A stretch of 64,000 nt of DNA from a virus (taxonomy: Duplodnaviria > Heunggongvirae > Uroviricota > Caudoviricetes). A program made the translations under genes and the position numbers. The DNA is taken from the IMG/VR virus record IMGVR_UViG_3300035544_000169. One strand, 5' to 3'. Positions 1-11,524 of this stretch are shown here, piece by piece (positions within the stretch are counted from its first letter, which is position 1; each line of letters starts with the position of its first letter). The notes under the pieces are model-generated. The model did not search any database. It had not been told where the DNA came from and saw only the letters and a program-made list of their open reading frames with translations.

Positions 1-843
1 TACCCTTTAGATATTACGACAACAAATGCAACAAGAACTGAAGTAAGAGCACTATTTGATGATTTGGAATCTAAAAGAGTTATTTTATATAACTCAATTA
101 CAGATGCCAAGCAGGAAGAGGCTATTCTTTACTCTGAAGCTGATATAGTAAGTGACCCTGAGATAAATATATTCCATTTCGATAAGCATCTTACATCAAC
201 AAAAGGTGTTCATCCAGCAGGAGATTTTACAGTTTCAATAGAAACTGGATTATTTAAAAACGGTGCTGGAATCCACAGCGTAGATGAGGGAGTTTTGTTC
301 TATAATACAGCAGACCTTAATTTAAATACAAATTCAGGAACAATATCGATGGCTTTTAAGATACCAAGTGATGTAGATTTTAAAGGAAGTTCAGGTTACA
401 AGAGATTATTTAGCATAGGAGAGTTTGCTACAGAGGGCCAGTTTATAGCTTACTATAACTTAAGCGACAACACCTTCAGATTTAGAATCCATGACGGAAC
501 AACAGCACAGGAAGTTACCGCAAATCATGTTTATCAGCCAGGATTTAAACGCTTTACTTTTAAGTGGAGCCCTGATGAGATGGCTATTTTTATAGGTAGC
601 GAAAAATTTATCAAAAATAGTTTTAATCTGCCGGAATTTTTTGCCTCAGATATAATATACTTCGGTTCCAAAAACAAAAACGAGGAGCACATTAATTCCG
701 TGATAGATGAGGTTTTAATTTCTAACAAAGCTGAAGACGATATGAAGATAAAAAGATGGGCCAAAATGAATAGGCCGTTTAATGATACCGAAGATTATAT
801 ATCTGTACCAATTGCTGATGTTGTAAATATTAATTGGTTATAA
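1..843 (+). CDS. C-terminal part of a fibre/receptor-binding-like protein with a LamG/ConA-like lectin domain (5' end lies outside the window)
   Basis: Frame 1 is open from nt 1 with no stop before 64. It contains the HFDKHLTSTKG motif followed by a beta-rich domain ending ...DEVLISNKAEDDMKIKRWAKMNRPF, like the C-terminal modules of ORFs 865 and 3113. Confidence 0.55.
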   Translation, partial: YPLDITTTNATRTEVRALFDDLESKRVILYNSITDAKQEEAILYSEADIVSDPEINIFHFDKHLTSTKGVHPAGDFTVSIETGLFKNGAGIHSVDEGVLFYNTADLNLNTNSGTISMAFKIPSDVDFKGSSGYKRLFSIGEFATEGQFIAYYNLSDNTFRFRIHDGTTAQEVTANHVYQPGFKRFTFKWSPDEMAIFIGSEKFIKNSFNLPEFFASDIIYFGSKNKNEEHINSVIDEVLISNKAEDDMKIKRWAKMNRPFNDTEDYISVPIADVVNINWL

Positions 844-864
844 AAATTAAGAGGTGGTATAAAA

Positions 865-3096
865 ATGAATAAACAAATAAGAAACGCAAAGATAACATGG
901 GACTGGTCTGGTGATGAGTTTGCATTAGAAAGATTTAATGTAGTTTTAACCCCTTCAGGGGGAGACCCAAGACAGGATGCAACAGTTTATGCATCTGCAG
1001 GAACCACAAAAAACAAAAACGGACTTTATGAATATATATTTAGAGATATAACAGTAGATACAGCCAATACATATGTAGCATGGGTTCAGGCAGTTTATGA
1101 AAACGAGGATAGTGATTGGCTTTCTACAAGTACTCTGGTTATAGAAGATGATGGAACACCGTCAATAGCTTCACTTGATGAAGTTGACACTGTAGCCGCA
1201 GATAAAGTTCAGACCTTTATTGACGGCCAGTACACAACAGATAAAGAAGCACTGCAGACACAAATTGACGGCAAGATAGAAACATGGTTTACCTCAACTG
1301 ACCCTGAGACAAACTGGACAACAGCTTCTGAAAAGGAAAAACACCACGGAGATATGTGGTACAACGGAACCTCAAACCAGCTTAAAAGATATAACTGGGA
1401 CGGTTCTGCAGGAAGCTGGATTTTAATACAGGACCAGAAAGCAATTGACGCTTACGATAACGCTTCTAAGGCTCAGGATACAGCAGACGAAAAGAGAAGA
1501 ATCTTTACCTCAACTCCTACAACCCCCTATGATGTAGGTGATATGTGGGCACAGGGTGAAGCAGGAGACATGTATGTCTGTAAAACTGCAAAGCTTGAAG
1601 GCGAAAGTTATTCAGTAAATGACTGGCAGAAAGCTGCTGACTATGCAACAGGAACAGAATACCAGAATTTTGTAGACAGCATGACTCAAAATATGACAGA
1701 ACTCCAAAACCAGCTAGATGGCAATATAACAACCTGGTTTATGGATGGGGTACCTAGCTTAACAAGCCAGCCATATACAGACTGGGAAACAGAAGATAAT
1801 GCATCAACTGATGATACAGATTACTATATCAGAAATTCTCACCTGGGAGATATCTACTATGATAATGTAACAGGTACAGCCTACCGTTTTACAGGCTCAA
1901 CAGGCTCATATTCCTGGACAGAAATAACAGATAACGCCTTGACTGAAGCTTTGACAACAGCAAGAGGTGCTGAAGATTTAGCTGACCAGAAAAGAAGAGT
2001 TTTTGTCACAACTCCAACGACACCTTATGATGTCGGAGATTTATGGACAGAAGGAGAAAGCGGAGATTTATACCGCTGTATTACTCCTAAATCAGACACA
2101 GGTTCTTACAGCTCAAACGACTGGGAAAAGGCAGTAAAATATACAGATGACACAACAGTAAATACTTTCATAGACGGGACATTTGCAGATACAGTTGACG
2201 ATTTAACAGGCCAGATTGACGGTAAGATAGATACCTGGTTTGGCTCAACAGACCCTTCTACAAGCTGGGCTGGCACTGATGCCTCTCACGAAGGAGACCT
2301 CTGGTATGACAATACATCAGGTTCTCAGAAGCTTAAAAGATGGGATGGGGCAGGCTGGAATGAGATAACAGACCAGAAAGCAATAGACGCTATGGAAGCT
2401 GCAGGAGAAGCTCAAGGGACCGCTGATAAAAAGAAGACAATATTCACAAATGAGCCAGTTTCTCCTTATGATGTAGGTGATATGTGGTGGCTTGGCCCGG
2501 ATAATGTTGATATGAAAATCTGTACAACAGCTGATGGTTCAACAGGAAACTTCACAGCTTCTCATTGGGAACTTGCTACTAATGCAGAACAGTATACAAA
2601 AGATTTAACACACGCTCATATAGTTAATCCAAACACAACCTATTTATTCCACTTTAATAAAAATATAACATCTACTGATGGAGTAGGTCCTAACTCAGGT
2701 TATGATGTTAATTTGCACAAAGATGGAGGCAAATTCGGTGGAGCAGCAGAAGTAGTCAGTAGCCTGTCGTATAACTTCGGCAGTTTAACAGATTATACTA
2801 TATCAGTCTACTATACAAGCACATTAGGCGGTTCTTTTGACCATTATGTAATAAAGTCTAACGGAGAGAAGTATGTGAATGGAGAGAGAAATGACGGAGC
2901 TACCACAAGCTTCATGACAGTTAGTGCACCAAATATAACATTAAACACAGGAGTATATGATGAACTGATGGTCTCAACAGAATTAAATTCAGCAGCAGAG
3001 ATAAAAAACTGGTATGATATGCAGAAACCATTTTTTGACCCTGAACTTACAATAGATGTTCCGGAGCCAACCTCAATTACAATGAGTTGGAATTAA
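865..3096 (+). CDS. Tail fibre / receptor-binding protein paralogue 1 (N-terminal anchor, 3 tandem ~150-aa repeats, C-terminal LamG-like lectin domain)
   Basis: The N-terminus ITWDWSGDEFALERFNVVLTP...WVQAVYENEDSDW...DDGTPSI is shared with ORFs 3113, 9330 and 15359. Internal repeats IDGKI(E/D)TWF..TDP.T.W...GD.WY...KR..WDG..W..I.DQKAIDA...PYDVGD(M/L)W occur three times. The C-terminus has HFNKNITSTDG followed by a LamG-like fold ending NWYDMQKPFFDP. An RBS GAGGTGG lies upstream. Confidence 0.75.
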   Translation: MNKQIRNAKITWDWSGDEFALERFNVVLTPSGGDPRQDATVYASAGTTKNKNGLYEYIFRDITVDTANTYVAWVQAVYENEDSDWLSTSTLVIEDDGTPSIASLDEVDTVAADKVQTFIDGQYTTDKEALQTQIDGKIETWFTSTDPETNWTTASEKEKHHGDMWYNGTSNQLKRYNWDGSAGSWILIQDQKAIDAYDNASKAQDTADEKRRIFTSTPTTPYDVGDMWAQGEAGDMYVCKTAKLEGESYSVNDWQKAADYATGTEYQNFVDSMTQNMTELQNQLDGNITTWFMDGVPSLTSQPYTDWETEDNASTDDTDYYIRNSHLGDIYYDNVTGTAYRFTGSTGSYSWTEITDNALTEALTTARGAEDLADQKRRVFVTTPTTPYDVGDLWTEGESGDLYRCITPKSDTGSYSSNDWEKAVKYTDDTTVNTFIDGTFADTVDDLTGQIDGKIDTWFGSTDPSTSWAGTDASHEGDLWYDNTSGSQKLKRWDGAGWNEITDQKAIDAMEAAGEAQGTADKKKTIFTNEPVSPYDVGDMWWLGPDNVDMKICTTADGSTGNFTASHWELATNAEQYTKDLTHAHIVNPNTTYLFHFNKNITSTDGVGPNSGYDVNLHKDGGKFGGAAEVVSSLSYNFGSLTDYTISVYYTSTLGGSFDHYVIKSNGEKYVNGERNDGATTSFMTVSAPNITLNTGVYDELMVSTELNSAAEIKNWYDMQKPFFDPELTIDVPEPTSITMSWN

Positions 3097-3112
3097 AAGA
3101 GAGGTGTAGACT

Positions 3113-5749
3113 TTGAACAAACAAAACAGAGACGGAAATATAACATGGAGCTGGGAGGGAGATACCTTTGCCTTAAGGGGGTTTAATGTTGCCATAACCC
3201 CCTATGGTGGCAACCCAAACAGTGAGTCAATTGCAAAGGCAAGAGTTGAAGCCTCATCAAGGTCTTATACTTTTGAAAATATAACTATTAATGCTGATGG
3301 AGAATATCAGGGCTGGGTGCAGGCTATTTATGAAGGTGGAGATAGTGCCTGGCAGACTACGGGTAAGATAACAGTACCTGATGACGGAACACCAACCATA
3401 GTATCTTCTACTGATGTAGACACAATAGCAGATGAAACAGAACAGAATGCAAAAGAATATTTCGATTCACGCTACATAAAAGACAATGACGAGCTGATTC
3501 ATTTTGATAAGCATTTAACTTCTACTAAGGGGTTGGAGCCGGAAGCTGGCTATGAAGTAACTATAAGAGAAGATGGAAAACATGATGGAGCTGTGGCCAT
3601 AGAGGAAAGCACTGAGAATTTATCAAATGGAATATCAGGAACGAGTGGAATTTCTTTAACTTATATTAGTGATGAAAATGGTTGGAAAAAGTATAGTTTA
3701 AGTGGCACCTGGAACAGTGGAACATATCCATACTGCATGCGCCTTAAAGGTGTTAGTTTAAAAGCTAATACTGCTTATTCTACTTCGTTTTATTTTAAAA
3801 CTAATGCACAGCACAAATTTCACTCAGAAATAAGGTCTGTTAATTATGTGAACATGTCTTTGGTTACAACCGGAAATTTTTCAGTTGAGAAGCTACATAA
3901 TGATATCTTTTTTGTTAAAAGAGAGGGGTTTATTTACCCTAAAGATACAACCCAATCAGGATATTTGTCTATAAGACCAAAAGAAAATGGAACTACATTT
4001 AATCCTAATACTGATTTTGTATACTTTAAAAAAGTTCAAGTAGAAAAAAGTATATTCTCAACCTCATTCACAGAATCAACCAGAGACAAAGGTAAGCTTA
4101 ACTATCCTATCAATACTGATAATAAAACAATTAATTTCTACAGAAAAGGTGTTACGAGTTTAGTAGAGAATACAAACGAGGATTTTAGTAAAGGAATATT
4201 AACTGATGTAGAAGTTGTTGGTGATGGGGTTGAGTTATTAAAACCTACTTTTGAAGATGATTTTTTAAACTCAAATAATTGGACAGGCAATTTTGATATT
4301 GACAATGGATATTTAAGACATACAGCAGACAATATTTCTGCATATACTATTAACAACGTTATTGAGTCTGGTAAAAAAACTATAAATTTTAAATTTATGA
4401 ACAATGGTCATGGTTCATCACAGGACCAATACTATGTATCTCCTATATGGAATAGTGATGATGATAGATTAACCTTTTACATGAGGACTTACAAAAGCGG
4501 AGATTATGAAATAGAACTACTATCTTTAATAGGTGGGGCAAGCACTTCTTTATTTTCTGACACAAAATACAACTATTATAATATGGCTGGTCAATGGTTT
4601 AATATAAAAATGTTTAAAGATAGTTCTGATATTAAAGTTAAAATATGGATTGAAGGAGACTCTGAGCCTGAGAATTGGGATTGGGAAGTTTCAGCCCCAG
4701 AAGGAGTAGTTGATGAAGGCAAGTTTCATTCTTTTGCAAGATATACTGATGTTAATGGAACTGGGTTGGATAATATCTATATAGAACAATACAAAAAATC
4801 TGGCACCCGACAATCACCTCAACTAAATCTATCTGATATTAATAATGTTACTGATAGTTTAATAGAGTGGGAAGGAAATTACATCGAAGAAGAGAACTTC
4901 GGAGATAGCATGGGGGGAAGTTATCACGGTAATAATGGATTAATCTATTTTGATGTTCATAGAAGAATGAGACTTGATAGTGTGCTTATTGATGCTAATT
5001 TTACAGGTGATGTTGTTATAACATTACAGGATGGTAGCGGAGGCTATATAAAAGACAAAACTATCAATATATCAACTTCAGGAGAGCAGAGGATAGATAT
5101 AGGCTGGGTGTTAGAACCTGGAAGCTACAGAATAGGAAGGGTAACAAATACCAGCGCCACGCCATTAAGAAGGATTCCGGGTGCAGCAACATTTCCATAT
5201 GAAAGTAAATATAATATAGCAACAATGACTGGAACAAATGCTGCTGATTATTATTATTATTTTTTTGACTGGCACATAACTGACTTAAGCTCATTAAAAG
5301 TAGAAACAAGCGTAGATAATGGTTCTTCATGGCAATTGTGTGAAAATGGGGGCTCAGTTCCTAACCTGCCAACAAGTCCAACGACACTTGATGTAAGGCT
5401 CAAACTCAGCACTGGTGCAACAACCATAACCCCTACTCTATCAGAAGTTAAGGCATATATCTTTACTGATAGTGATGATGAGTACAAAATGTACACCATC
5501 AAGCCTGACGGCACAGCTTATCTAAACGGTAATCAAATAAATGCAGTACCGAATGCCGTGATAGATATAACCGAACCCGGCAAGTTACAGTTTAAACCAA
5601 ACAACATCTATGACGAAGTACTAATAAAAGATGGAGACGTAACAGAAGAAGAAATCAATAACTGGTATGAACTCGGAACACCATTCGTTGATTTGCACCC
5701 TAAAACAAACACAAATACACCCACAAATGTAGTATTAACAGAGGTTTAG
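3113..5749 (+). CDS. Tail fibre / receptor-binding protein paralogue 2 (shared N-terminal anchor; modules shared with ORF 11544; C-terminal LamG-like domain)
   Basis: The N-terminus ITWSWEGDTFALRGFNVAITP...WVQAIYEGGDSAW...DDGTPTI matches the other fibres. It carries the HFDKHLTSTKG motif. Blocks GTWNSGTYPYCMRL, GYLSIRPKENGTTFNPNTDFVYFKK, TRQSPQLNLS and SVDNGSSWQ...NLPTSPTTLDVR are homologous to ORF 11544. The C-terminus ends ...EEEINNWYELGTPFVD. Confidence 0.75.
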   Translation: MNKQNRDGNITWSWEGDTFALRGFNVAITPYGGNPNSESIAKARVEASSRSYTFENITINADGEYQGWVQAIYEGGDSAWQTTGKITVPDDGTPTIVSSTDVDTIADETEQNAKEYFDSRYIKDNDELIHFDKHLTSTKGLEPEAGYEVTIREDGKHDGAVAIEESTENLSNGISGTSGISLTYISDENGWKKYSLSGTWNSGTYPYCMRLKGVSLKANTAYSTSFYFKTNAQHKFHSEIRSVNYVNMSLVTTGNFSVEKLHNDIFFVKREGFIYPKDTTQSGYLSIRPKENGTTFNPNTDFVYFKKVQVEKSIFSTSFTESTRDKGKLNYPINTDNKTINFYRKGVTSLVENTNEDFSKGILTDVEVVGDGVELLKPTFEDDFLNSNNWTGNFDIDNGYLRHTADNISAYTINNVIESGKKTINFKFMNNGHGSSQDQYYVSPIWNSDDDRLTFYMRTYKSGDYEIELLSLIGGASTSLFSDTKYNYYNMAGQWFNIKMFKDSSDIKVKIWIEGDSEPENWDWEVSAPEGVVDEGKFHSFARYTDVNGTGLDNIYIEQYKKSGTRQSPQLNLSDINNVTDSLIEWEGNYIEEENFGDSMGGSYHGNNGLIYFDVHRRMRLDSVLIDANFTGDVVITLQDGSGGYIKDKTINISTSGEQRIDIGWVLEPGSYRIGRVTNTSATPLRRIPGAATFPYESKYNIATMTGTNAADYYYYFFDWHITDLSSLKVETSVDNGSSWQLCENGGSVPNLPTSPTTLDVRLKLSTGATTITPTLSEVKAYIFTDSDDEYKMYTIKPDGTAYLNGNQINAVPNAVIDITEPGKLQFKPNNIYDEVLIKDGDVTEEEINNWYELGTPFVDLHPKTNTNTPTNVVLTEV

Positions 5750-5767
5750 TTTAGTTTAATAAACAAC

Positions 5768-5796
5768 TTGAAAAATGGTCCAGAATATGGTATAAT
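5768..5796 (+). promoter_or_regulatory. Canonical sigma-A/sigma-70-type promoter (TTGAAA-N17-TATAAT with extended TG) upstream of the rSAM/cytidylyltransferase cassette
   Basis: TTGAAA at 5768-5773, a 17-nt spacer, and TGGTATAAT at 5788-5796. It lies ~35 nt upstream of the RBS and start codon of ORF 5832. Confidence 0.55.
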
Positions 5797-5831
5797 TATA
5801 TATAGAAGGAAAGAATAAAAAGGGGGCCAAA

Positions 5832-6635
5832 ATGTACACTAATCTAAGAATGGTAGAAATAGAAATACACAGCTATTGCAACAGAACATGCAGTTGGTGT
5901 CCTAATAAATATATAAATCGAAAGATAAAAAAGATACTGCCTAAGACTAATTATACAAATATTTTAAACGAACTCAAGTCCATCGATTATAAAGGAACAA
6001 TAAGTTACTCAAGGTATAATGAACCTTTTGCTTTGAAAGAAATTTTTGCTCAGTATACTAAAAAAGCAAGGTTGTTATTACCTGAAGCAAGACTTGTAAC
6101 AAACACCAATGGAGATTATCTTACAAACTCAATTTTAGATAGAGTTGAGATAGATGAGCTTTCAATAATGGATTACGACAACAAAGGTTTAGGCTACTGT
6201 ATTCAAAGAATGGAAGATTTAAATTTTGAGATAACAGAAATAATAGATAATAAGATATACGGTTTTGGTCACGACATGGAAGTAGTGTATGTTAGCGACT
6301 GGGCCAGACTGGAAAGCTTTGGAGACAGGGCGGGCTCTTTAGAAAAAGCAGATAAAAAAATAAGAAAAAAGAAATGTTATGAGCCTTTTCATTTTCTTGG
6401 GATAGACTACAACTGCAATGTGATGCCCTGCTGCAACTTCAGAAGCGATAATAATATCCACCAGGAATTTGTACTTGGTAACATAAAAAACGAAAGTATC
6501 AGGTCAATACTGGATTCTAAAAAGCTAAAAGACCTGCAGTTAAGACTTCAAAACTTAGACTTTCCCGAGCAGTGTAAATACTGCATCAAAGAAGAGGGAA
6601 GGTATACCAGGGAGAATCCCGGTATAAAATATTGA
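5832..6635 (+). CDS. Radical SAM domain protein, paralogue 1 (CxxxCxxC plus C-terminal Cys-rich twitch/SPASM-like region)
   Basis: HSYCNRTCSWCPN (Cx3Cx2C), NEPF (GGEP-like), TNTNGD (TNG ribose motif), and a C-terminal C...YNCNVMPCCNF...CKYC cluster. It is paralogous to ORFs 18551 and 19465. An RBS AAAGGGGG lies upstream. Confidence 0.75.
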   Translation: MYTNLRMVEIEIHSYCNRTCSWCPNKYINRKIKKILPKTNYTNILNELKSIDYKGTISYSRYNEPFALKEIFAQYTKKARLLLPEARLVTNTNGDYLTNSILDRVEIDELSIMDYDNKGLGYCIQRMEDLNFEITEIIDNKIYGFGHDMEVVYVSDWARLESFGDRAGSLEKADKKIRKKKCYEPFHFLGIDYNCNVMPCCNFRSDNNIHQEFVLGNIKNESIRSILDSKKLKDLQLRLQNLDFPEQCKYCIKEEGRYTRENPGIKY

Positions 6636-6654
6636 GATTAAAAGGAGTTAATAA

Positions 6655-7335
6655 ATGAAAAAAATCGGAGTTTTTATTCCTGGTAGATTACAAAGCGAAA
6701 GGCTTCCAAACAAATTAGTACTTCCTTTAGGAGATACAAACCTTTGGGATATAGCCTGTAAAAAGCTAAACAGTCTGCCAGATAAGTATAATAAATATGC
6801 ACTATGCTACGACAAAGAGCTTGTAGAGATTGCTCAAAAATATGATAATCTAACAGTTATTTTAAGAGATAAAATTACGGCTTTAGTTGATGGCCCGCTT
6901 GAGTATATATTTAAAGACTTAAAAGAAGTAGAAGATACACATTTAATGTTTTTAAATCCGTGCCTTGCTTTTTTAAAAAAAGAAACAATCTTAAAGTCAT
7001 TAGAGACATTCGATAGTTTAGATGAAGATTACTGTGAGGGCAATTATGCAACAAGCGTAAAAGTTTATAAAAACTGGTTATTTAATAATCAAAATCAATG
7101 CTTAACAGATATAAATTATGAGAGGCTGACAACAAAAGAAATACCTGATTATTACGAAGCTGCTCACTGCTTTCATATTTTTAATAAAGATAATTTTTTC
7201 AAAGACGGGCAGATGCTAAAAGACAACCATTCTTTAATAGAAGTACCAAACAAAGAAGTAATAGATATAGACACCAAAGAGGATTATGAATTTGCTAAAT
7301 GGAAGTGGGAAAATAAGTCAACTTCTCCCACCTAA
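6655..7335 (+). CDS. Acylneuraminate/nonulosonate cytidylyltransferase family protein (NeuA/PseF/SpsF-like, CTP_transf_3)
   Basis: N-terminal IPGRLQSERLPNKLVLPLG (the R..S.R...K motif of CMP-sugar synthetases), a mid NPC..F block, and C-terminal IDIDTKEDYEFA, all matching CMP-NeuAc synthetase family signatures. Confidence 0.65.
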   Translation: MKKIGVFIPGRLQSERLPNKLVLPLGDTNLWDIACKKLNSLPDKYNKYALCYDKELVEIAQKYDNLTVILRDKITALVDGPLEYIFKDLKEVEDTHLMFLNPCLAFLKKETILKSLETFDSLDEDYCEGNYATSVKVYKNWLFNNQNQCLTDINYERLTTKEIPDYYEAAHCFHIFNKDNFFKDGQMLKDNHSLIEVPNKEVIDIDTKEDYEFAKWKWENKSTSPT

Positions 7336-7336
7336 T

Positions 7337-7560
7337 CAAAAACAAGATTAGAAGGGAGCTTGTTAAGTAATAAACCATACTCAGTATAGTCTATTAACAA
7401 GTTTTCGCACCTTCTTAAACCCACAAGTGGGTGATTCAGGATTAAGAAAGTTACAGGATGGTTGACTCGTGAATCTTTTTCACCCTATCCACCATGTTAA
7501 AACACAGTGGGTTACAGATTACTCTGTAAGCTGTATTAAACAGCTATGCTACATCGACAA
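7337..7560 (-). ncRNA. Predicted TnpB omega (right-end) RNA overlapping the tnpB 3' end and RE
   Basis: Structured, relatively GC-richer segment downstream of the tnpB stop, with hairpins CCCACAAGTGGG and TTACAGATTACTCTGTAA. Position and orientation fit the omega RNA of IS605-family TnpB. This is inferred, with no expression data. Confidence 0.3.
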
Positions 7561-8698
7561 AAGGATTTTCTATCTCAATACCCATAGCAAGTTTAGCTAT
7601 ATTTATACTGGCATTAGTATCAGCATTAAAAGTGTGACCATTAGTACATTCAAACAAGTTTTGTGTTTCTCTTATGCCTTCTTGTCCACATACGTGGCAT
7701 ATCTTAGATGTTTTGTAAGGATTAACTTCTTCAACAGGTAAGTTATTAAGATTAGCTTTATGTTTTACAAACTGTTTTAATTGATAGTAAGCCCAACTAT
7801 TTTTCTCATAGTTGTTTAGATTGTTATCGTTAGTAATATTCTTTCTAATATTCTTAAGGTTTTCAAATACAATAGTAGAATTATATTCTTTAGCTATCTC
7901 AATAATTCTATTAGTTATAAGCCAGTTAGTTTCTTTAGTAATTCTGTTTTCTTTAATCAGTGAAGTATTCTTACTATCAGACTTAAAAGCTTTACGCTTA
8001 CGTTTACTTTTATATCTCATACGTTTAAACCTTAACTCTTTACCTGATAGGTGTTCAGTATGCAAAATATTTTCACTGCTGTCTACTACACTAAACGTAG
8101 CTAGATTAATAATACCAAGGTCAACACCAAGATGAGTGTCTGTTTCTTTTCCTTTCACTTCGTATCTTAGTATAAAATTAAGATACCATTCACCATCTTG
8201 TTTATATAGCTCAGCTGTTTTAATCTCGTACCTATCATTATTAATATAATTTAAGTGGTAGTTGCTTAAAGAGATAGGTACGTAGATATTGTTATAAGGC
8301 TCAATGCTTATCTTTATAATATTAGTACCGTTATCTTTTCTTATAAGTTTAAAACTTTTATTCTTAACTAAATCAACAGGTACTTGATAGTTAAACTTAA
8401 CGTTATCTCTAAACTTTTTATGACAAGACTTATAAGATTCCATAGCTTTACGATTAGCTTCAATAGCTACCTGTGAAGGGAGGTTGTAATTATTCTTAAC
8501 AACTCTATATACATGCTTATGTGATTTAGTGTAAGCAGTAAGCCCCCAGTGTTTAATTATTTTGAGGGCTGAACGAATAGCTTTGTTCCAGTTACGAGAA
8601 AGCTTTTTTAGTTCATTACGTTTAATATTTGTAGGTTCAAATAATTTAATGTGGTGTAGTGTGATATGTGATTTACTCATTGTTATCACTTTCTTCAT
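7544..8698 (-). CDS. tnpB: TnpB (IS605 OrfB family RNA-guided endonuclease)
   Basis: RuvC-I LGVDLGIINLA, RuvC-II IVFENL, zinc finger CHVCG...C, and RuvC-III FNADTNASINIA. The true start is probably MSKSHI at 8680, which overlaps the stop of the upstream RHH ORF. Confidence 0.9.
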   Translation of the reverse strand: MKKVITMSKSHITLHHIKLFEPTNIKRNELKKLSRNWNKAIRSALKIIKHWGLTAYTKSHKHVYRVVKNNYNLPSQVAIEANRKAMESYKSCHKKFRDNVKFNYQVPVDLVKNKSFKLIRKDNGTNIIKISIEPYNNIYVPISLSNYHLNYINNDRYEIKTAELYKQDGEWYLNFILRYEVKGKETDTHLGVDLGIINLATFSVVDSSENILHTEHLSGKELRFKRMRYKSKRKRKAFKSDSKNTSLIKENRITKETNWLITNRIIEIAKEYNSTIVFENLKNIRKNITNDNNLNNYEKNSWAYYQLKQFVKHKANLNNLPVEEVNPYKTSKICHVCGQEGIRETQNLFECTNGHTFNADTNASINIAKLAMGIEIENPFVDVA

Positions 8699-8813
8699 AG
8701 TATTGAAATAAAATATAGCGAACCATTTCTGAAATGCCTATGCCTTTTTTGTTTCCTTCTTCATCTAGTTTATCTCTAAGATATTTAGGTAAAGAGACTT
8801 GTGTTCGTTCCAT
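8673..8813 (-). CDS. Small ribbon-helix-helix (CopG/Arc-like) protein encoded inside the IS, translationally coupled to tnpB
   Basis: 46 aa, MERTQVSLPKYLRDKLDEEGNKKGIGISEMVRYILFQYYEESDNNE. The RBS GAGGTGAT sits 5 nt before the ATG. The stop overlaps the tnpB ATG (ATGAGTAA). Confidence 0.5.
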   Translation of the reverse strand: MERTQVSLPKYLRDKLDEEGNKKGIGISEMVRYILFQYYEESDNNE

Positions 8814-8995
8814 TTTTATCACCTCATACTACTATTATACCACATTTTGTTGTAAAAGTCAAGTATTTAAACACTTAAATGTTACAAAATATTTAAAAAA
8901 GGATGGTGAAAAAATAGTAAGGATATTAAATTACGCAATTCCTCCCCACCCTAATCAGAGACAAGATTAGGATGAGGTTTCCTTGCTATAAATAA

Positions 8996-9286
8996 ATGAA
9001 ATATGTTGTAGATATAGATGGAACTATATGTACACAAGAGAAAAACTATCATGATGCTAAGCCAAAAAAAGAAAAAATAAAAATGTTTAACAGATTATAT
9101 GATGAAGGAAATACTATATGGTACTTCACAGCTAGAGGTACTGAAACTGAAATTGACTGGCGTTTTGTCACAGAAAAGCAGTTTGAGGACTGGGGTGTGA
9201 GGTACCATAAATTATTATTTAAAAAACCCTCTGCCGATGTTTATGTAGGAGATAGAATGGTTAATATAGAAAATTTTGAAATTTAA
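8996..9286 (+). CDS. Small HAD-like phosphatase-fold protein (DxDGT motif), paralogue of ORF 30450
   Basis: VVDIDGTIC (HAD motif I), ...WYFTARG..., YVGDR. It shares the pattern with 30450..30845. Confidence 0.45.
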   Translation: MKYVVDIDGTICTQEKNYHDAKPKKEKIKMFNRLYDEGNTIWYFTARGTETEIDWRFVTEKQFEDWGVRYHKLLFKKPSADVYVGDRMVNIENFEI

Positions 9287-9329
9287 TTTTTTAAAGGGGG
9301 GCAAACTTCAAAAATAGAGAGGTGAAATA

Positions 9330-10664
9330 ATGGCATATGTTATAAAAAACTTAAAGATAACATGGGATTGGTCAGGAGACATATATGCTGTTCTTGGATT
9401 TAATGTAGCAATAACACCTGTTGGAGTTGAGCCTACTGATGAGATTGTTGTATTAGCTCAAACCGGTAAGGAAAAATTTGAGCATACATTCAGGCAGATT
9501 ACACTAAAAGACGGCATTGAATATACGGCATGGGTTCAGGCTATCTATGAAAATAAAGATAGTCAGTGGATAAGCGTCAGCGGGTTTATAGCCAATGATG
9601 ACGGCACAGCTACTATAACAACTAAAGACCAGCACGACGCTCTTTTAGATGAAACTGTTAATTACAGAACAAAAGGGTCTCCAACTAATGAGCCAACACC
9701 GACCAATATAGTTGTTAATGAAAACAGCAACGGCTCTCTAGATATTAGAGTCGAGTGGGCACCATATAGTCAGGGGACAAGAAAAGCAGATATGCTTATT
9801 CTTTTCTGGAAAAAGGGTGATACTTCAGGTCTTGGAGTGCCTACAACAGAAGACAGCAATGTTAGCTTTAGTGTAAACGAAAGCAATAGTGCGTACTACT
9901 TATTAGAAGGACTTGCTCCTAATACATTTTATAGATTTGGTATAGCAGCAGCAAGAAGAACAGAAAACGGATTAGAGATTGGCAATATAGTAAGTCCTGC
10001 AAGTTGGACAGATGTTGATGTTGGTGATGCAACCATCAATCACGACAATGTTAATGGTTCAGCTGGTGGAGGAACATTCCTTTTAGACGAAAACGGTATT
10101 AGACATACAAGCGGTAGCTTTAGTATAGACCCCGACGGAAACGCCCATTTTGAAGGCGAGATAGTAATTGGAGGTACAGCAACTTCAACCAATGACTTAG
10201 AAACACAATCAGGGGCACAAAGCAAAGCTGATTCTGCTGAAGAAAACGCTAAATCTTATTCAGAAAATGCTGTTGGTGCTGTTGAAAATTGGACTTCTGA
10301 TACAACAAATTACACAACTATTTCTGGTGGAGTAGTAAGGACAGGGCAGATTCAGTCAGAAAATTATGAACCACAAACAAAAGGAGCTCAGGTTGACCTA
10401 GATAGCGGCATTATAGATTTCGGAGGAAGATTATACTACGAACCAAACTTAGGATTACTTGTAAACGGAACCATTTATGCAGAAGATGGGTACATATCTG
10501 ATGGTGTTACAGTAGGAGCAGAAGGTAAATCGATACTCGAAACAATAAACGAATCAACGAAAAAAAAGGTAAATGTAAAACCCGAAGGTGGTAAGTTGTG
10601 GCATTTTGACAAGCACTTCACATCCACCCAGGGAGAAATGATTACAATAATAAAACCAGTTTAA
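9330..10664 (+). CDS. Tail fibre paralogue 3 (shared N-terminal anchor; FN3/Ig-like middle; ends at the HFDKHFTSTQG motif with no lectin module)
   Basis: N-terminus ITWDWSGDIYAVLGFNVAITP...WVQAIYENKDSQW...DDGTATI. The block TSTNDLETQSGAQSKADSAEENAKSYSENAVG is shared with ORF 15359. The protein terminates 8 aa after LWHFDKHFTSTQG. Confidence 0.7.
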   Translation: MAYVIKNLKITWDWSGDIYAVLGFNVAITPVGVEPTDEIVVLAQTGKEKFEHTFRQITLKDGIEYTAWVQAIYENKDSQWISVSGFIANDDGTATITTKDQHDALLDETVNYRTKGSPTNEPTPTNIVVNENSNGSLDIRVEWAPYSQGTRKADMLILFWKKGDTSGLGVPTTEDSNVSFSVNESNSAYYLLEGLAPNTFYRFGIAAARRTENGLEIGNIVSPASWTDVDVGDATINHDNVNGSAGGGTFLLDENGIRHTSGSFSIDPDGNAHFEGEIVIGGTATSTNDLETQSGAQSKADSAEENAKSYSENAVGAVENWTSDTTNYTTISGGVVRTGQIQSENYEPQTKGAQVDLDSGIIDFGGRLYYEPNLGLLVNGTIYAEDGYISDGVTVGAEGKSILETINESTKKKVNVKPEGGKLWHFDKHFTSTQGEMITIIKPV

Positions 10665-10667
10665 GGA

Positions 10668-11075
10668 GTGAATATAATGGCATTACATTTTTATCATGAT
10701 GCAGCAGGTACTCAAGAGATAACAGAAGCAGATGTAGACCATGAAAGACTTGCTGATGTTGTAGGCAGCACTATTATATCAGAAACACAAATTTATATAG
10801 GTTCAGATGACCCTAATTTAACATACGAAAATATAGTTGTCAGCACAGTAAATGATTTTGACCATACATCAAACGCAGGAGAGATTGACATAGAATATGC
10901 TTTAGACAGTAATGGAAGTCCAGGTACATACAATCAGGTTTTAAATGTTCCAAATAATGATTTTGACCCACCTGTACCTATCTGGAGGAAGATGACAGCA
11001 CCAAATATAACAACCGCCTTTACAATAAGTAATATAGAACATCACATAGAAAATTATGACGAATATGTTAAGTAA
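10668..11075 (+). CDS. Hypothetical acidic protein (structural-module accessory)
   Basis: ORF of 135 aa with an RBS GGAGTG, D/E-rich. It starts 3 nt after fibre 3. No recognisable motif. Confidence 0.4.
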   Translation: MNIMALHFYHDAAGTQEITEADVDHERLADVVGSTIISETQIYIGSDDPNLTYENIVVSTVNDFDHTSNAGEIDIEYALDSNGSPGTYNQVLNVPNNDFDPPVPIWRKMTAPNITTAFTISNIEHHIENYDEYVK

Positions 11076-11233
11076 TTAGTTTAGTAATATTTATAATACT
11101 TAACAACAGAAGGGAGGTTTTAGTTTTATCATTAGACTACAGTATTGAGACTGGTATTACACTAATGACTCACTCTCTGTTTATTCTAGCAGCAAATACG
11201 AGATTGGAGAAACAAAAAGCATAAATATTATTA

Positions 11234-11524
11234 GTGATTATGAAAGTCTGCTCGCAAACCTCGAGGGCTTGCCCCGAGGAGCGTCAAGGAAGAATATATG
11301 TTGATAAGGAGTTAATAGAAACTAATATAAGTTGGTTTGAATTTAACGAAACAGATAAAACAGTAACGATTAAAAATGAGGCGATTGATATCGATGAACT
11401 AATAGCGATACCATTTATGATAACAGATGAAGACCTTGATAGGTATTACAACTCAACATTTTACGACCCTGACGAAAAAGAAAAAATAAACAAACCAGAC
11501 AATATAACAATGATAGAACTATAA
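11234..11524 (+). CDS. Small protein or gene fragment duplicating the C-terminal module of fibre ORF 11544 (start uncertain)
   Basis: ...EAIDIDELIAIPFMITDEDLDRYYNSTFYDPDEKEKIN matches the C-terminus ...SGAIDIDELLVFPQIIDQKQIDRIGGSPFYDPNRSVKID of ORF 11544. The annotated N-terminus overlaps a GC-rich hairpin and lacks a convincing RBS. Confidence 0.3.
   Translation: MIMKVCSQTSRACPEERQGRIYVDKELIETNISWFEFNETDKTVTIKNEAIDIDELIAIPFMITDEDLDRYYNSTFYDPDEKEKINKPDNITMIEL

Follow-up and report, generated by a model that had tools for sequence, protein, structure and literature searches.

A 64,000-nt stretch of phage DNA from IMG/VR record IMGVR_UViG_3300035544_000169 (the window, at its full length) carries, between a cytidylyltransferase gene and a HAD-like phosphatase gene, a 1679-bp arc-tnpB transposon of the IS200/IS605 family on its minus strand (7317..8995). 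We consider it highly probable that this is a non-autonomous, TnpB-only (IS1341-like) element that resides in a phage, is repressed by an Arc-type protein, is guided by RNA, is capable of homing and is mobilised in trans. The observations that carry this reading are the anatomy of the element, its precise insertion, a fixed target-adjacent motif (TAM), a conserved RNA structure, intact catalytic residues in TnpB and an autonomous IS605 element with matching ends. The element is a clean example of the already described class of Arc-bearing, TnpB-only IS605 elements and no new class of system; its one feature of mild novelty is that it sits in a phage for which a matching empty allele is available.

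Ends, target site and empty allele

The extent of the element was set by family-wide limits of conservation and by an empty site, which agree. In family alignments conservation begins after TTCAT, with a short linker and a TAGCAAGG box, and ends at ...GAGAAGTTGAC; in the window these limits fall at 8995 and at 7317, the latter being the C of ...GAGAAGTTGAC. The empty site is found in L084, an IMG/VR phage contig of 203.6 kb that lacks the element and whose cytidylyltransferase is 97% identical to that of the window. It reads ...GGGAAAATAA|ATGAAATATG... (in a longer reading, ...TGGAAGTGGGAAAATAAATGAAATATG...) and joins window 7316 directly to window 8996, with BLAST matches continuing on both sides (L084 3065-4662 to window 5720-7316 at 96.0% identity, and L084 4657-6904 to window 8990-11240 at 91.7%). 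Because the flank in L084 matches this join, the insertion was exact and left no target duplication. The placement of the junction is ambiguous by 6 nt (AAATAA). These nucleotides form a microhomology between 7311-7316 and 8990-8995 (AAATAA on the plus strand, TTATTT on the element strand) that joins the first left-end bases with the flank past the right end; together with the 7-nt linker described below, it could reflect chance in AT-rich DNA or an imprecise event affecting TnpA cleavage. The initial annotation of this DNA, made from its letters alone, had proposed a TnpB-only IS200/IS605-type element at 7326-8970, inserted between the cytidylyltransferase and HAD genes. The intact TnpB, the end hairpins, the empty site and the fixed target bear out the element and its location, and the boundaries move outward to 7317-8995. 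The same annotation had suggested comparison with a related phage lacking the insertion, and it is L084 that supplies both the exact ends and the target site.

The TAM, 5'-TTCAT (8996..9000, minus strand), abuts the left end; on the plus strand it reads ATGAA and includes the start codon of the HAD gene. It was derived from 43 distinct family insertion sites, in which CAT is invariant (43/43), T(-4) occurs in 42/43 and T(-5) in 37/43; the 43 distinct upstream flanks represent 44 loci from a metagenome scan with the left-end box plus the earlier loci. Many matches to this box lie at contig ends with differing flanks, as a multi-copy, recently mobile repeat would be expected to do. We also considered that the TAM, as the complement of ATGAA, might steer insertions to the start codons of genes; this was dropped, as 10 of the 43 sites against a background of 17.6% is no enrichment.

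The motif CCCACC(C)TAATC-N8-GATTAG is present in exactly two copies in the 64-kb window, none being expected from shuffled sequences, and these mark the two subterminal hairpins that the initial annotation had placed at the ends. The left-end hairpin (8944..8977, minus strand) has a 13-bp stem and an 8-nt loop, folds as single-stranded DNA at -7.9 kcal/mol (z -2.7) and is kept in all family left ends. Outside it lies the left-end terminus (8981..8995, minus strand), in which a linker of 7 nt (TTATTTA) precedes the conserved TAGCAAGG box; in 37 of 43 relatives the linker has 8 nt. The right-end hairpin (7325..7358, minus strand; -7.4 kcal/mol as single-stranded DNA, z -3.2) doubles as the last stem-loop of the omega RNA and is followed by the conserved terminus GAAGTTGAC. 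As had been noted before, the stop codon of the cytidylyltransferase (TAA, 7333-7335) lies inside one of the hairpins, that of the right end. The two hairpins are similar, imperfect, in direct orientation and kept throughout the family, and terminal inverted repeats are absent. A loose regular-expression scan for such hairpins was uninformative and was superseded by nhmmer profiles.

In this layout the element follows the IS608 and ISDra2 paradigms and the IS1341-type derivatives, with similar subterminal hairpins and insertion 3' of a fixed pentanucleotide without duplication. It further shares with the two paradigms a right end only a few nucleotides past the hairpin foot, a TAM identical to the target site and an omega RNA that covers both the 3' end of tnpB and the right end. 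IS608 targets TTAC and ISDra2 targets TTGAT. The window element differs from both in its TAM, TTCAT, in an omega RNA lying almost wholly downstream of the tnpB stop codon, in the additional ribbon-helix-helix (RHH) gene and in lacking a TnpA in cis. The element is also distinct from the IS607 family, whose members have a serine recombinase as TnpA, mostly GG ends and no end hairpins: here a recombinase open reading frame (ORF) is absent and the ends read TTATTT... and ...TTGAC with hairpins.

Miniature elements of ~55-60 nt are also found at TTCAT sites (all on the minus strand: L116 ~8700-8768, L127 ~8560-8626, L153 ~2850-2915 and L001 1687-1734). Each consists of one hairpin, in which a left-end-type 5' part (linker plus TAGCAAGG) is fused to a right-end-type 3' terminus (GAAGTTGAC), and they look like left-end/right-end deletion derivatives or relics of the family resembling miniature inverted-repeat transposable elements.

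TnpB, its omega RNA and the Arc-like gene

The tnpB gene (7544..8680, minus strand) encodes 378 aa, or 384 aa if counted from an ATG at 8698, and its product matches the Pfam domain Cas12f1-like_TNB (1.6e-17) and, weakly, OrfB_IS605; among solved structures, those closest to it are a TnpB (9nzp) and Cas12f proteins. None of the RuvC residues (D187, E273, D354) or zinc ligands (C328, C331, C345, H349; CCCH) varies among 24 homologues, the window copy included. TnpB is thus complete from RuvC I-III to the zinc finger, as the initial annotation had it, and the mutated RuvC residues that would have spoken against this are not seen. With these residues in place, TnpB is predicted to be a potentially active RNA-guided nuclease. 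The retained catalytic residues and the intact transposon ends set the protein apart from TldR and other nuclease-dead, exapted TnpBs, and the regulator role that had been floated for it finds no support.

The omega RNA scaffold (7317..7545, minus strand) is ~229 nt long, beginning with the tnpB stop codon and reaching to the terminus of the right end. This region folds with a minimum free energy of -79.8 kcal/mol (z -6.2), and RNAalifold on 23 distinct homologues yields nine helices with 57 pairs in total, of which 30 show compensatory double changes; a long-range GUCAA/UUGAC helix closes the predicted structure. Pairing extends to 96.9% of the alignment cells, compared with 85.9% after shuffling, none of 500 shuffles being as good, and it falls to ~40% when partners are slid by 1-3 columns. 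The covariation supports the earlier suggestion that the structured tnpB 3' region is an omega RNA and places it at 7317-7545. An Rfam scan of 6500-9800 at E<=1 returned no known RNA family. In the omega RNA of an Orenia metallireducens homologue (L008 4060-4325) an insertion of ~40 nt lies between two conserved helices, so the scaffold tolerates expansion there.

Past the TTGAC at the right end, sequences diverge at once and are unrelated between copies (23 copies). In the window this flank (7297..7316, minus strand; TTATTTTCCCACTTCCATTT) is predicted to be transcribed and to specify the guide, and the guide so specified is an exact match to the empty site in L084. TTCAT followed by the right-end flank (TTATTTTCCCACTTCC) is intact only in L084, whereas the corresponding right-end junction of the window is TTGAC plus target. 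Judged from the sequences of the two alleles, the pattern of occupied and unoccupied sites is the standard self/non-self logic of TnpB. The variable flank and its match in L084 thus uphold the proposal that the guide is specified by flanking phage DNA.

The arc-like RHH gene (8673..8813, minus strand) lies inside the mapped ends of the element and adjoins tnpB. It encodes 46 aa, is preceded at 6 nt by a GAGGTG ribosome-binding site (8820-8825), and its stop codon overlaps the start of tnpB (ATGAGTAA). Its role as an overlapping upstream partner with a strong ribosome-binding site had been recognised in the initial annotation and is conserved in the family; a 47-aa RHH protein overlaps the TnpB start in three unrelated genomic contexts. 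The window copy gives weak matches to Pfam RHH_1 and RHH_5, RHH_1 is matched by all six family members scanned (best 6.9e-10), and a profile of these six finds the CopG repressor (1b01) as its best match among solved structures. The element promoter (8834..8862, minus strand), TTGACT-17-TATAAT with an extended TG, shares 11 of 12 positions with the consensus, is found 8 nt ahead of the RHH ribosome-binding site and is kept in RHH-bearing relatives. An ACA-N6-TGT motif in the promoter spacer was examined as an operator; it is a weak candidate and too inconsistent to claim. The RHH gene occurs in the window clade and in several further ones. Four sister elements (L005, L007, L119 and L135) encode an intact TnpB and no RHH, which makes the protein a putative accessory regulator and no obligatory partner. 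At the Acetohalobium RHH loci (L113 and L114), no intact tnpB was called beside the RHH gene and no TnpA was found.

The pairing of RHH and TnpB had been thought unusual. Arc-like RHH ORFs in IStrons and insertion sequence elements were, however, first noted by Zedaveinyte et al. (10.1101/2023.11.20.567912), and Moon, Zedaveinyte, Wiegand and Sternberg (10.64898/2026.09.24.754181, bioRxiv), whose study explicitly covers elements with arc and tnpB only, have since dissected the arrangement using ChIP-seq and reporters and found that the IS605 Arc acts as a repressor bound at the tnpB promoter. The window element shares with these Arc-encoding IS605 elements an RHH gene of <=50 aa within the boundaries beside tnpB, a strong adjacent sigma-70-type promoter, and the omega RNA and TnpB. 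It differs in that its arc gene is co-directional with tnpB and overlaps it, whereas published arc genes are divergent with tnpA, in its predicted beta-strand residues, and in its hosts (Halanaerobiales and a phage, as opposed to Clostridia); the window protein is a candidate member of the Arc clade of that study. By analogy with the IS605 Arc (10.64898/2026.09.24.754181), the promoter is likely the operator region, and the RHH protein most likely represses the promoter of its own element.

Proposed mobilisation and homing, and competing explanations

No Y1 (HUH) TnpA was found in the element, as the initial annotation had stated, elsewhere in the window or in the ~60 family loci examined, and the element is therefore classed as non-autonomous. 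A tblastn search with an IS608 TnpA as probe found Y1 transposases beside distant Bacillales TnpBs and none in the examined family loci. When the flank of a sister element (L001) was extended to 10 kb (L159), an autonomous IS605 came into view at 4502-6455, 5 kb from the sister arc-tnpB element on the same bacterial contig. Its two genes point away from each other and encode a Y1 TnpA of 134 aa (4571-4975; Y1_Tnp at 3.2e-40) and a TnpB of 414 aa with 28% identity to the window TnpB. It has the same layout of linker, box and hairpin as the window element, with near-identical stems at both ends, and differs in its target (TTTAT), its terminus (GTTCAC) and the lack of an RHH gene, where the window family has TTCAT and GTTGAC. 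From this likeness of ends, it is a plausible source of TnpA acting in trans. The left-end box of this IS605 is TTGAAAGA in place of TAGCAAGG, which may be a case of the left-end "guide" box co-varying with the pentanucleotide target.

From these data we infer nuclease activity, repression by the RHH protein, homing between phages and mobilisation in trans, and the following sequence of events can be proposed. The element transposed into a large phage, 3' of TTCAT, exactly where the stop codon of the cytidylyltransferase gene and the start codon of the HAD gene overlapped as ATGA. Its near-consensus left-end promoter would drive an arc-tnpB-omega RNA transcript, and a dimer of the 46-aa CopG/Arc-type RHH protein would bind and repress that promoter, keeping nuclease and guide low. 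TnpB would bind the ~229-nt omega RNA, with a 3' extension copied from the phage DNA past the right end, and the complex would cut genomes bearing TTCAT plus TTATTTTCCCACTTCC, that is, the unoccupied allele, which may arise by excision or be present in a sibling phage infecting the same cell. Repair by recombination with the occupied copy would then restore or spread the element (homing). Movement to new sites would need a Y1 TnpA in trans, from an autonomous IS605 with matching end hairpins.

Several points weigh against this reading. No TnpA was found in the window or in the family loci examined, the IS605 of L159 has TTTAT/GTTCAC in place of TTCAT/GTTGAC, so that cross-mobilisation is only predicted, and the 7-nt left-end linker, where 8 nt are usual, might hamper TnpA cleavage. 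There is no second copy in the 64-kb window, and the 10 listed contexts of the identical RHH protein represent one site, so the element gives no indication that it is still transposing within the phage. The RHH gene is dispensable, since the four sister elements do without it, and the predicted DNA-contact residues R3, Q5 and S7 of the window protein stand against Asn5/Asn7/Thr9 in the tested Arc proteins. Expression and activity of the element are themselves predictions from its sequence.

The overlap and co-transcription of the two genes, in antitoxin-first order, could instead point to a toxin-antitoxin-like pair in which the RHH protein would neutralise TnpB itself, keeping it from binding its guide or target, with no promoter repression. 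RHH proteins are common antitoxins, one RHH family member has weak CopG_antitoxin and HicB-like matches, and the idea has been put forward for archaeal RHH/MazE-TnpB loci (Altae-Tran et al. 2023, PMC10691335), where a small RHH or AbrB gene likewise lies directly upstream of tnpB, which is followed by a long 3' untranslated region. That proposal, however, concerns an immobile archaeal clade in which the RuvC-III Asp is changed to His. The window unit is bacterial or phage-borne, has the canonical D-E-D with D354 invariant, and is mobile, with ends, TAM, omega RNA, an empty site and multiple insertion sites in its family. The four sister elements indicate that an intact TnpB is tolerated alone, and the experiments on IS605 Arc show promoter binding (10.64898/2026.09.24.754181); we therefore regard direct neutralisation as improbable. 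That the hairpins are ordinary phage terminators or regulatory repeats around an inert TnpB remnant can hardly be credited. They do flank convergent or divergent transcription units and one holds a stop codon, but L084 lacks both hairpins as well as the genes, which refutes the terminator reading and answers the concern of the initial annotation that relatives might carry the hairpins without TnpB. The same hairpins border more than 40 elements in bacterial DNA, they lack a T-run behind them and a terminator scan gave 0 sites, and the TnpB ORF is uninterrupted and keeps every invariant residue.

It is also quite improbable, in our view, that the genes are a domesticated phage set and not a selfish element, serving as an RNA-guided weapon or regulator in superinfection exclusion or competition, or as a TldR-like transcription factor. 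The insertion is fixed in a phage lineage over many metagenomes, the guide aims at the allele of a sibling phage, and competition is a known effect of phage nucleases, both intron-encoded and free-standing (review PMC13565253). Yet the catalytic residues argue against a TldR-like function, the transposon ends and TAM logic are intact and of the same design as in chromosomal copies, and the insertion harms local gene order, with 5 residues added and the ATGA coupling lost. Any competitive gain to the phage would come from ordinary homing and calls for no separate mechanism. The arc-repressed, trans-mobilised transposon remains our preferred explanation, and it resembles phage homing endonucleases (T4 Seg/Mob; PMC13565253) in placing a nuclease gene between two conserved phage genes and in the predicted cutting of a nuclease-free allele in a co-infecting relative. 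It differs from them in that recognition would be RNA-guided (TAM plus guide) and not protein-based, and in that the transposon ends are kept.

Family distribution and phage context

The TnpB family is tight (55-100% identity), with a gap down to ~30% identity beyond it, and the relatives whose source is named are mostly Halanaerobiales (Natroniella, Frackibacter, Halanaerobacter, Orenia and Anoxybacter); the host of the phage is probably a member of this order. Among GenBank phages, blastn with 5800-10700 gave no match, and tblastn gave TnpB relatives at <=30% identity only and, for the RHH protein, only a chance-level match to an archaeal virus. A scan of IMG/VR with TnpB found no relative, so carriage of this TnpB family by phages looks rare. 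The identical RHH protein was read on 17 contigs from several sequencing projects, and the 10 places listed all have the same HAD/element/cytidylyltransferase context, which indicates an insertion fixed in one phage lineage and absent from L084.

The window phage is large and encodes a DNA polymerase, NrdD, RecJ and tail proteins. The cytidylyltransferase gene (6655..7335, plus strand; Pfam CTP_transf_3) encodes 226 aa, compared with 221 aa in L084, and takes its last 19 nt (7317-7335) from the right end of the element: the third base of a Lys codon (AAG), five codons (STSPT) and the stop. In L084 its stop TGA overlaps the HAD ATG (ATGA). In the window the insertion uncouples the HAD-like phosphatase gene (8996..9286, plus strand) from the cytidylyltransferase gene before it, which probably lowers HAD translation, as no Shine-Dalgarno sequence lies within 15 nt of its ATG. 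The radical-SAM/SPASM, cytidylyltransferase and small HAD phosphatase genes (5832-7335 and 8996-9286) lie among tail-fibre-like genes, which suggests a phage cassette for sugar or nucleotide-sugar modification. Beside the insertion site, ~5 kb of the window (730-5719) corresponds to ~84 nt in L084 (2981-3065); the window stretch holds two large ORFs, 865-3096 (with a tail-protein PHROG match) and 3113-5749, and L084 has a different ORF of 1008 aa instead, being otherwise 92-96% identical to the window. This looks like the swap of a tail-fibre module.

The element extends the association of Arc with IS605 to Halanaerobiales and to a phage genome. Occupied and empty alleles, TAM, guide, omega RNA structure, promoter and a candidate TnpA in trans are all defined from sequence, and the compact 378-aa TnpB with its TTCAT TAM is directly testable. 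We tentatively suggest that the element may act as an RNA-guided device for homing or competition between phages, cutting TTCAT-TTATTTTCCCACTTCC during co-infection in element-free siblings such as L084. If so, sibling genomes would be converted, or their markers around the tail-fibre/glycan-modification cluster excluded, with the Arc-like RHH protein keeping expression low, and a natural use of TnpB/OMEGA by one phage against another would be documented for the first time with occupied and empty alleles in hand. The phage and its sibling thus offer a concrete system in which to ask whether OMEGA nucleases drive homing between co-infecting phages.

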